Part shown: positions 30,001-33,000 of the stretch, piece after piece
Position numbering within the stretch: the first letter of the stretch is position 1
Layout: each line of letters opens with the position of its first letter
Source: a virus
Taxonomy: Duplodnaviria > Heunggongvirae > Uroviricota > Caudoviricetes
Length of the DNA stretch: 64,000 bases
Direction: 5' to 3' (one strand)
IMG/VR virus record: IMGVR_UViG_2718218322_000002
Made by a program: the position numbers

Positions 30001-33000
30001 TTGTGACGGCAAATCTGCAGCCCACCGGTGCGGTCTGGCTGATGTCCAGCACGAATGCCCTGGCGCTGTCCATGCGTAAAAATGCGCTGGGGCAGAAGGA
30101 ATATCCGGACATGACCCTGCTGGGCGGGACCTTCCAGGGGCTGCCGGTGATTGTCTCCCAGTATGTGGGTGACCAGCTGGTACTGGTGAATGCGCCGGAT
30201 ATTTATCTGGCGGATGACGGTGGTGTGGCGGTGGATATGTCCCGTGAAGCGTCACTGGAGATGCAGTCTGAACCGACCAGCGACAGCAGCACACCGTCAC
30301 CGGTGGAGCTGGTCTCCATGTTCCAGACCGGCAGCGTGGCCATCCGTGCGGAGCGCTGGATCAACTGGCGTCGTCGCCGTACCGCGGCGGTGGCTGTGAT
30401 CACCGGTGTGAACTACGGAACTGCGTCCGGCGGCTGAGTCTGATGAGGAGGGCGGGAGGCGCTAGCTTCCCGCAGTAACTGATGGCAAAAATCCAGTATC
30501 TGCAGGGCACGCATGATGCCCGGGCCGGGGATATCCGTGATGTGGCACAGCCGTGTGCGGAGGTGCTGGTTCGCCTGGGGAAGGCGGAGTACATCACAGC
30601 GCGACGTCCGGCAGGTCAGAAAAAGAAACGTGATGCGGAGCATGGCGAATGTGGAACCTTTTGCGGCGACCCCGAAAAAACCAGAAATCAGGACGTGATG
30701 TAAAAGAGGTGGGCTGGACCAGCCTGTTTCAGGCGGTGGCTGAGCCTTTTGCCGGTGCCTGGCAGCAGGGAGTGAAAGCCGATCCGGAAAGTGTCCTCTC
30801 CTTTCATGCGGTGTTTTCTTGCATTTCGCTGATATCCCAGGATATCGCCAAAATGCGGCTGCGCCTGATGCAGACCGATACACAGGGGATCCGCCGTGAA
30901 AAACGGCAGGGGGATATTGCCCGTCTCTGTCGTCGTCCCAATGCACAGCAGAATCGTATCCAGTTTTTTGAACTGTGGCTGAACGCCAAACTGCGTCACG
31001 GCAATACGGTGGTGCTGAAAATCCGTAACTCCCGTGGGCAGATCAAAGAACTGCGTATTCTGGACTGGAGCCGGGTTGAACCTCTGGTGGCGGATGACGG
31101 CGAGGTGTTCTATCGCATCACGCCGGACCGGAACTGCGGGATCACGGAGGCGGTGACGGTGCCTGCCCGGGAAGTGATCCACGACCGGTTTAACTGTTTT
31201 TTTCATCCGCTTGTGGGGCTGCCGCCGGTGTATGCTGCCGGGCTGGCTGCCACGCAGGGGTATCATATTCAGGCAAATTCAACGTCTTTTTTCAGAAATG
31301 GCGGCAGGCCGTCCGGGGTGATTGAGATCCCCGGCAGTATAACGGAAGAAAATGCGAAAAAACTGAAGAGCAACTGGGACAGCGGGTATACCGGCGAAAA
31401 TGCGGGGAAAACGGCGATTCTGAGCAACGGGGCGAAATATAACCCCACGACGTTTTCACCGGTGGATGCGCAGACGGTGGAACAACTGAAAATGACCGCT
31501 GAAATTGTCTGTTCGGTGTTCCGTGTCCCGGCCTACAAGATTGGTGTGGGACAACCTCCCTCCAGTGATAACGTGGAGGCGCTGGAGCAGCAGTATTATT
31601 CCCAGTGTCTGCAGACGCTGATTGAGTCCATTGAGCTGTTACTGGATGAGGCGCTGGAAACGGGGGAAAACGAGAGCACGGAGTTTGACGTCACCACGCT
31701 GCTGAGAATGGACAGCGAACGGCGCATGAAAACGCTGGGTGAGTCGGTGAAAAATACGCTGCTGACGCCCAATGAGGCCCGTAAACGTGAGAACCTGCCG
31801 CCCCTGGCCGGCGGTGATGCACTGTATCTTCAGCAGCAGAACTACAGTCTGGAGGCGCTGTCCCGTCGTGATGCCCGTGAGGATCCGTTCGCGTCGTCCG
31901 GGAAAACAGTCTCAGCACAACTGCCTGATGGCGCATCTGACGGTAATAAGGCAATCAGTGAAACAGAGCATGATGCGGTGAAAGCGATGTTCAGGGGGAT
32001 ACTGCGAAAATGACGGAACGGGAACTGTCCATTATTCGTGCACTGGGCGAAGAATTCGCCATGGTGCTGGCGGATTTACAGCGTACATTTGAGGAGAAAA
32101 TAGCCGCGCAGGCACAAACGTTTGAAGAAAAACTGGCTTCTCAGTCTGTGGTATTACAGAAGTGCGTGACGGGTGATGATGTGCGTCCGATGCTTGAGCA
32201 GATGGTGAAAGAGGCAGTGAGCCATATTCCTGTTCCGCGCGACGGTCGTGACTACGATCCGGATGTTCTGCAGAAGGCGGTGAATGATGCGGTTGCGAAT
32301 ATTCCGGTACCGGCAGACGGCAAAAGTATCACCCCGGATGATGTGCGTCCGATGCTTGAGCAGATGGTGAAAGAGGCAGTGAGCCATATTCCTGTTCCGC
32401 GCGACGGTCGTGACTACGATCCGGATGTTCTGCAGAAGGCGGTGAATGATGCGGTCGCGAAAATACCGGTACCGGCAGACGGTAAAAGTATCACTCCGGA
32501 TGATGTGCATCCGATGCTTGAACAGATGGTGAAGGAGGCGGTAAGCCATATTCCTGTTCCGCGTGATGGTCGTGACTACGATCCGGATGTTCTGCAGAAG
32601 GCGGTGAATGATGCGGTCGCGAAAATACCGGTACCGGCAGACGGTAAAAGTATCACTCCGGATGATGTGCATCCGATGCTTGAACAGATGGTGAAGGAGG
32701 CGGTAAGCCATATTCCTGTTCCGCGTGATGGTCGTGACTACGATCCGGATGTTCTGCAGAAGGCGGTTCTGGAGGCGGTGAGTGCCCTGCCGGCTCCGCA
32801 GGACGGGCGTGATGCCACGGCACTGGAAATACTCCCCGCCATTGACGATCAAAAATCCTTTCCCCGGGGCTCGTATGCCACACACCAGGGTGGACTCTGG
32901 CGGGCGTATGAAAAAACGTACGGGATGCGGGGATGGGAATGCCTGGTTGACGGGGTGGCGGATATTGACGTCAGCATGACGGGTGAACGGTCGTTCTCTG

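Follow-up and report, generated by a model that had tools for sequence, protein, structure and literature searches.

T4 fibritin (wac), found in the neck whiskers, and phi29 gp8.5, found in the head fibres, are built on the same plan, in which an N-terminal attachment region is followed by a stalk of short loop-broken helical segments and by a small C-terminal β domain; the wac gene adjoins the neck genes. SPP1 gp7 and the MuF-type proteins are encoded immediately after the portal, and in known portal structures the C-terminus of the portal lies inside the capsid. The gene considered here, which we call X, occupies such a portal-adjacent position in a lambdoid, long-tailed, Stx-phage-type prophage of Escherichia coli O157:H7, of which a stretch of 64 kb was analysed (hereafter the window). 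Local gene order is large terminase, protease-capsid fusion gene, small ORF, portal, X, Ad1 connector, head-closure protein and tail genes.

The portal gene (30649–32013, + strand) encodes an HK97-type protein of 454 aa (Pfam Phage_portal, E 1.4e-80; NCBIfam TIGR01537 portal_HK97, E 3e-106), an ORF that spans the entire HK97 portal model in both databases. Its TGA stop (32011–32013) overlaps the ATG of X, the junction reading ATGA at 32010–32013 with AGGGGG at 31993–31998. Within the latter motif, a run of five G (31994–31998, + strand), 11 nt upstream of the X ATG, is the likely Shine-Dalgarno (SD) sequence and, in an alignment of split and fused junctions, the site of a G5/G6 polymorphism. 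Gene X itself (32010–33233, + strand), delimited from the ORF list and from synteny in diverse loci, encodes 407 aa and has no match to portal models in Pfam or NCBIfam (PF04860, TIGR01537). It is followed by the gp6-like head–tail connector Ad1 (33230–33556, + strand; Pfam Phage_connect_1, E 1e-7; phrog_40 Ad1, E 3e-30), whose start overlaps the X stop by 4 nt. There is no separate scaffold gene in the module, and the capsid gene is a protease-linker-MCP fusion, which in this prophage has a 1-nt deletion, so that the prophage may be defective regardless of the state of X.

A tandem array that varies by whole units

Residues 56–271 of X are encoded by a 4 × 162-bp tandem array (32175–32822, + strand) which, on the basis of Tandem Repeats Finder (TRF), unit dissection and AlphaFold2 (AF2) modelling, corresponds to eight 27-aa helix-plus-loop modules. 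The original prediction had described four in-phase 54-aa repeats in a 407-aa protein between the portal and the connector, and TRF, the ORF list and domain matches all agree with it: the interval resolves into four in-frame 54-aa units within the + strand ORF at 32010–33233, with a diverged last half-unit. Over positions 32175–32767, TRF reported a period of 162, 3.7 copies, 97% matches, 0% indels and a score of 1053, the count being 3.7 rather than 4 because the second half of copy 4 has diverged (63% nucleotide identity to the other second halves). A second TRF row, with a period of 75, is the same array, which is the sole one scoring at least 200 within the window. Head-to-tail arrangement, conservation of frame and high identity were thus found by both TRF and unit dissection, as expected of a tandem coding repeat. 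Copies 1–3 share 92.6–96.9% DNA identity, with 5 nt and 1 aa differing between copies 1 and 2, 7 nt and 1 aa between copies 2 and 3, and 12 nt and 2 aa between copies 1 and 3. That these differences are mostly synonymous (12 nt for 2 aa between copies 1 and 3) argues that X is under purifying selection.

The 54-aa unit is itself composite, a half-unit A (DDVRPMLEQMVKEAVSHIPVPRDGRDY) of 27 aa being followed by a half-unit B (DPDVLQKAVNDAVANIPVPADGKSITP) of equal length, a subdivision absent from the first reading of the sequence. Both follow a common pattern of acidic start, amphipathic helix and I/L-P-x-P-x-D-G motif, and they share only ~35% DNA identity. The order of the eight modules, A1 B1 A1 B2 A3 B2 A3 B4, implies duplications in two different registers. 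An exact-match scan identified a perfect 200-nt direct repeat (32406–32767, + strand) whose two arms, 32406–32605 and 32568–32767, are offset by 162 nt, and in which B2 equals B3 and A3 equals A4 at 100%; no longer exact stretch recurs at +162. It marks the latest duplication and is a substrate for unequal recombination. In keeping with the predicted identity of the first halves of copies 3 and 4, the first 107 nt of these copies are the same. The array is therefore real, recent and far beyond chance.

A second prediction, that copy number would vary among strains and alter the length of the protein, is borne out by related prophages and isolated Stx phages, in which X has 1–7 units and 245 to 569 aa. 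To count units in 83 related E. coli prophage loci, the conserved parts of X on either side of the array, N-terminal and C-terminal, served as anchors. We found one unit in 1 locus, two units in 1, three in 19, four in 50, five in 9, six in 1 and seven in 2; four is over-represented, since loci had been ranked for sampling by how similar they were to a 4-unit query. All length differences among the 83 loci are exact multiples of 162 bp, with an additional 1-nt indel in one locus, and complete E. coli genomes likewise contain spans that match 3 and 4 units, a pattern of whole-unit variation like that of a VNTR. Some alleles were read directly: a 1-unit allele (245 aa) is present in phage Lys8385Vzw, which has been induced, plaque-purified and propagated (PMC7946995), and a 2-unit allele in Stx2c_JNE121036. 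BP-4795 has 5 units. Collapse or expansion of the array during assembly, the artefact that might have explained it, is ruled out, since E. coli O157:H7 strain 4276, whose genome is complete, carries the 4-copy array at 100% identity, and since alleles in other complete genomes and phage records differ by exact 162-bp multiples.

Outside E. coli, most X orthologues contain old, diverged modules only. Near-identical 162-bp arrays are nonetheless found in a Pantoea locus (3.0 copies, 96%) and in a Pseudomonas locus (2.8 copies, 93%), and a Phytobacter locus has arrays with other periods. The Pantoea and Pseudomonas arrays arose independently of that of E. coli, which indicates that change of length in steps of 54 aa is recurrent and tolerated. 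The elongated heads of Sakai lambdoid particles (PMC2669165) prompted the idea that the array might act as a ‘ruler’ of head length, which is unlikely since close relatives of about 51–58 kb carry 1–5 units. In the tape-measure gene, the window and strain 4276 also differ by exactly 162 nt; this was considered as a copy of the array and rejected, the difference being an unrelated deletion between 11-nt direct repeats.

Portal and X as two coupled genes

Public annotation presents the locus differently. The NCBI pipeline PGAP labels 30649–33233 as ‘phage portal protein, frameshifted’ in strain 4276, and does likewise in O111 RM9322; PHROG 2271 is an 859-aa ‘portal’ profile that spans both ORFs; and many database homologues are entered as ‘portal protein, partial’ with a Phage_portal domain plus X. 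It is from such fused entries that the label ‘portal protein’ on X derives. Neither the ‘frameshifted portal’ annotation, nor the in-frame portal fusion, nor the large family with a CBM5/12-like C-terminal domain described below had figured in the original prediction. Where fused forms read …AMFRGDTAKMTEREL…, the window reads …AMFRGILRK-stop, then MTEREL…, and the junction alignment shows that the sole difference between the two states is one G, with G6 in phage 2851 (fused) and G5 in the window, O111 RM9322 and BP-4795. The split (G5) form is found in 53 of the 83 E. coli-type loci and the fused (G6) form in the other 30. Two isolated phages, BP-4795 and Lys8385Vzw, are split; the deposited genome of phage 2851 has the fused allele, with which this phage is reportedly infectious.

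Which of these states is ancestral is clear from 27 diverse loci, which comprise Salmonella phage FSL SP-016, Pseudomonas phage PAJU2 and 25 further genomes, and cover Enterobacterales, Pseudomonas, Pseudoduganella, Haliea, Marinobacter, Acetobacteraceae and Rhizobium. Related loci were sought with an alignment of the C-terminal domain, the full-length diverse alignment having no conserved stretch of 7–10 columns. The portal is followed by X in all 27, with a detectable Ad1 gene after X in 25, and in none of the 27 is X in frame with the portal: enteric lineages show an offset of −1, Pseudomonas-type ones an offset of +1. The start of X overlaps the portal stop by 4, 10, 14 or 17 nt in 27/27, and a purine-rich SD-like motif lies ~9–12 nt upstream of that start in nearly all of them, AGAGGA in relatives standing at the position of the E. 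coli G-run (AGGGGG). By start/stop overlap and upstream SD-like motif alike, portal and X thus form a translationally coupled gene pair. A portal domain is present in only 2 of the best 150 X-family representatives, namely the E. coli form and P0220, an independent and distant fusion of 1,237 aa with ~25 helix-plus-Pro-rich-loop modules. Fusions outside E. coli therefore amount to 1 of 149 other representatives and 0 of the 27 diverse loci. The uniform two-gene order, the overlaps and the SD-like motifs imply that two coupled genes are the ancestral and general state. X is a separate, independent gene coupled to the portal and not a broken portal, and the 859-aa E. coli ‘portal’ is a derived fusion, produced when the likely Shine-Dalgarno of X gained a single G (G5 to G6).

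These findings leave little room for the reading that underlies the PGAP label, according to which the X ORF is the 3′ half of a frameshift-broken portal pseudogene and the array is functionless here. This would be in line with the label itself in strain 4276 and O111 RM9322, with the coverage of both ORFs by the PHROG 2271 profile, with the genuine 1-nt deletion in the capsid gene of this very prophage and with the portal function being scored as defective in Sakai Sp6, Sp9 and Sp12 (Asadulghani et al., PMC2669165). It is very unlikely, however, given that two genes are found in 27/27 diverse loci, including lineages that lack the G-run or have another frame offset, that the HK97 portal model is matched over its full length by the 454-aa portal ORF, that X has its own SD-like motif and ATG, and that BP-4795 and Lys8385Vzw, both isolated phages, are split, the fused state being derived.

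A related scenario is that some of the ribosomes translate the portal and X as one chain through a programmed −1 frameshift, either at the G-run or at A-AAA-TGA. In the window, perfect re-pairing in the −1 frame is indeed possible for tRNA-Gly on GGG or for tRNA-Lys on AAA, a slip at the G-run would yield the exact sequence of the G6 fusion (FRGDTAKMTEREL), and A-AAA-TGA is preceded, at a distance of 8 nt, by an SD-like element. However, lineages differ in their offset (−1 or +1), several have no G-run at all, and in most relatives the pre-stop codon is preceded by C rather than A (ACC AAA TGA, GCC AAA TGA), which makes this scenario extremely unlikely. A conserved programmed frameshift of the dnaX or tail-chaperone G/GT type was rejected because neither a slippery site nor the frame offset is conserved at the junctions.

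Predicted architecture and candidate roles of X

By sequence comparison, X belongs to a widespread, very large and uncharacterised portal-adjacent family with a CBM5/12-like tip, which counts 5,459 representatives at 50% identity (E ≤ 1e-3). Members are 214–1237 aa long, have from 1 to ~25 units and, in all those examined, follow a common plan of N-terminal helical segment, variable number of 27-aa modules and conserved C-terminal domain; the Pfam accession precomputed for members of the family is PF28083. An AF2 model of X, computed as a monomer from an alignment of 41 sequences, predicts the same helix/repeat/β-domain architecture. The N-terminal region (aa 1–55; 32010–32174, + strand) would be a single long helix, modelled confidently for residues 3–52 (pLDDT ~90). 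In the repeat region, eight helices of 13–18 residues alternate with loops of ~12 residues (pLDDT 45–75). Profile matches of this region to de novo designed helical repeat proteins were put aside, as they reflect composition and helix–loop periodicity and not homology. The C-terminal domain (aa 272–407; 32823–33233, + strand), which has CBM5/12-like motifs and is the most conserved part of X, is confidently predicted to be all-β over residues ~278–400, and reached a pLDDT of 90.9 when modelled separately.

The resemblance of this β domain to carbohydrate-binding modules was assessed in several searches. The family profile matches All3316 (E 2.5e-4) and, at E 0.003–0.006, CBM5/12 domains from chitin deacetylases and from chitinase 60. 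The family alignment has invariant or nearly invariant W and Y residues. The Pfam CBM_5_12 model (PF02839) aligns with residues 359–379 of X at 18.5 bits (E 0.002), which is below its gathering cut-off of 26.2 bits. In Foldseek searches the fold resembles CBM5/12 modules and tail fibres, but with no match at E ≤ 0.001, and sequence and profile searches found no true homologue of X among solved structures. A literature search for proteomics or structures of X returned only unrelated head modules (PAJU2, D3, YA3, AH14a, BP-4795 and head fibres).

We give a little better than an even chance to X being a modular fibre-like accessory virion protein with a variable stalk and a probable polysaccharide-binding tip, whose length is altered by unequal recombination or slippage. 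The gene is a conserved late one, found in HK97-type head modules whose protease-capsid fusion gene stands ahead of the portal, and its translation is coupled to that of the portal gene through a start placed over the portal stop and an SD-like motif that usually lies inside the end of the portal gene. The N-terminal helix (~50 residues) may be a segment for oligomerization or for anchoring at the portal vertex or close to it, the 27-aa modules, each a helix plus a Pro/Gly loop, would be chained into a stalk or spacer, represented in the window by the 162-bp array, and the C-terminal β domain (~135 aa) would be the working tip, which probably binds polysaccharide. Unequal homologous recombination or replication slippage would add or remove whole 54-aa double modules in frame, and the perfect identity of up to 200 nt between neighbouring copies would thereby lead to gain and loss of whole modules and to the natural alleles of 1–7 units. 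Presence in the virion, anchor site, oligomeric state, glycan binding and an effect of stalk length on phenotype are what we infer for X.

The main difficulty for the fibre model is the recurrent fusion of X to the C-terminus of the portal, which favours an internal, crown-associated location. X could accordingly be an internal head protein of ~12 copies that sits on the portal crown, with repeats that set the length of an internal axial structure, whether as a detachable equivalent of the portal barrel of P22, as a portal-associated protein like SPP1 gp7/MuF or as an ejection protein; the CBM-like tip might then act after ejection, for example on peptidoglycan. We consider this unlikely, even though it would account for the fusions (30/83 E. 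coli loci, the deposited 2851 genome and, independently, P0220), for the tight coupling of X translation to the portal in every lineage and for the position of X directly after the portal, which is where SPP1 gp7 and MuF-type proteins are encoded. What speaks against it is that, in structure, the C-terminal domain comes closest to extracellular glycan-binding modules and to tail-fibre modules, that a range of 1 to ~25 units in the family is hard to reconcile with a fixed capsid volume, and that no Phage_Mu_F domain (PF04233), the signature of MuF/SPP1 gp7-type proteins, was found in X by Pfam at E ≤ 0.1. The rarity of fusions outside E. coli (1/149 representatives, 0/27 loci) further argues that covalent attachment is not the selected state.

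In a different and improbable interpretation, X is tethered to the portal, and the G5/G6 run in its Shine-Dalgarno is a slippage-prone switch that toggles X, within a prophage population, between a free subunit and a covalent C-terminal extension of all the twelve portal subunits. Together with a stalk of 1–7 units, this would create a length-adjustable structure, internal or at the vertex, for instance a portal barrel like that of P22 but detachable and tunable in length, or a probe that is ejected and binds peptidoglycan.

Finally, X might be an assembly factor, i.e. a portal-incorporation or scaffold-like chaperone that is removed after procapsid assembly and hence missing from the mature virion, the repeats being a tolerant spacer. 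The helical, coiled-coil-like character of its N-terminal two thirds in the AF2 model, its co-expression with the portal and the lack of a separate scaffold gene in the module are consistent with such a role. It is nevertheless quite unlikely, since the protease-MCP fusion already has a coiled-coil linker that matches other fused protease-capsid proteins and since the most conserved part of X is a glycan-binding-type β domain, and we know of no scaffold that needs one.

Implications and comparison with known systems

A variable-number coding tandem repeat in a modular phage structural protein is an ordinary phenomenon. What is worth recording is the misannotated two-gene state, the G5/G6 origin of the long Stx-phage ‘portal’ and the existence of a large portal-adjacent family with a CBM5/12-like tip. 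Thousands of database entries name X ‘portal protein’, and PGAP flags the normal two-gene state as a frameshifted pseudogene, with the consequence that prophages may be scored as defective when they are not. O157 genomes contain several near-identical prophages with the array, with a median of 6 matching places per genome, and such an array, with up to 200 nt of perfect self-identity in several prophages per genome, breaks short-read assemblies; the many ‘partial’ portal proteins on contigs of ~2 kb fit such breakage. Matching complete E. coli genomes number 1,247. The 162-bp array also provides a natural length marker for Stx-type prophages. If the fibre reading is correct and X forms fibres on the head or at the vertex, tipped with a glycan-binding domain, then temperate siphophages, the long-tailed Stx phages among them, would widely possess an aid to adsorption that has been overlooked.

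The gene pair in the window can be compared with the long ‘portal’ of Stx phages 2851 and YYZ-2008 (PHROG 2271, 859 aa), which has essentially the same sequence as the portal ORF plus X, one G apart; in those phages it is a single fused protein, whereas the window and all the distant relatives examined have two genes. With the neck whiskers of T4 and the head fibres of phi29, X shares the overall plan, a likeness of architecture alone, and just as wac adjoins neck genes, X sits between the portal and the Ad1 adaptor. Its helical segments (13–18 residues) are shorter than those of fibritin and gp8.5, and its loops are Pro/Gly-rich (IPVPxDGxx); among the search results there was no sequence or fold match of X to these two proteins that would place it with the segmented coiled-coil fibres. 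Compared with the CBM5/12 modules (PF02839) of chitinases and similar modules in phage tail fibres, the C-terminal domain of X differs in being ~135 aa long and in apparently comprising two such motifs and an inserted sheet, and glycan binding is putative.

Like the Ig-like repeats of phage Hoc-type proteins and the stalks of bacterial adhesins, X has in-frame, near-identical repeats that vary by whole units between close relatives, but its unit is a pair of α-helix-plus-loop modules and not an Ig domain. Like the portal barrel of P22 gp1 and SPP1 gp7 or MuF-type proteins, it is helical, linked to the portal and encoded after it or as a C-terminal extension of it. It has, however, no homology to these proteins and ends in a glycan-binding-type β tip; it is also normally a separate protein, unlike the P22 barrel, which invariably belongs to the portal polypeptide.

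Indels in the head genes

In the window, a short G run at ~29502 in the protease-major capsid fusion gene (28501-30437) has lost 1 nt, which breaks the gene into the ORFs 28501-29724 and 29643-30437; the sequence there is GGCAGT-GGCGCGGGG, whereas the intact genes of E. coli O111 RM9322 and phage BP-4795 have GGCAGTGGGCGCGGGG. The corresponding gene in the O157:H7 strain 4276 is likewise labelled 'frameshifted' by PGAP, and the window prophage may be unable to produce its own capsid. Between this gene and the portal gene is a 73-aa ORF (30482-30703, + strand) that overlaps the portal start. 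A 'hypothetical protein' is annotated at this position in strain 4276, O111, BP-4795 and phage Lys8385Vzw, and small ORFs are also present between capsid and portal genes in Salmonella phage FSL SP-016 and Pseudomonas phage PAJU2.

A second G run, at the portal-X junction (31994-31998), lies within the likely Shine-Dalgarno sequence of X, the 407-aa protein carrying the 54-aa repeat array. Its length, G5 or G6 there and at the homologous sites of related loci L002-L085, sets whether portal and X are made separately or as a single fused protein. Each state is found with at least two different flanking sequences, a distribution which suggests that the run slips repeatedly or that co-resident prophages recombine.

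A deletion in the tape measure gene

The tape measure protein of the window (gene at 36212-39292) is 54 aa (162 nt) shorter than its counterpart in strain 4276, whose prophage is otherwise near-identical. The difference is not a tandem repeat but a deletion, in frame, across direct repeats of 11 nt (TGCAGGAAAAA) at ~37692-37708, and its identity in size with the repeat unit of X is a coincidence. Tape-measure length is related to phage tail length, and the shortened protein would thus predict a slightly shorter tail.

The X module and its putative stalk

E. coli complete genomes that match X do so at a median of 6 places and a maximum of 34, and many homologous proteins are 'partial' and encoded on contigs of ~2 kb, which together suggest that the X module is a frequent breakpoint in short-read STEC assemblies, as possibly is the array itself. 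The entire array is also spanned by a 340-aa antisense ORF (32154-33176, - strand), most likely a by-product of stop-free repetitive sequence because both homology and the pattern of synonymous substitutions belong to the + strand.

The same putative stalk is enlarged in different ways by other lineages. The 556-aa X of Phytobacter diazotrophicus (locus L090, 2259-3929) contains near-identical arrays with periods of 279 and 174. P0220, a distant 1,237-aa member of the family, has ~25 modules with a LPxPEPLPDI-type loop and is joined to its own portal.
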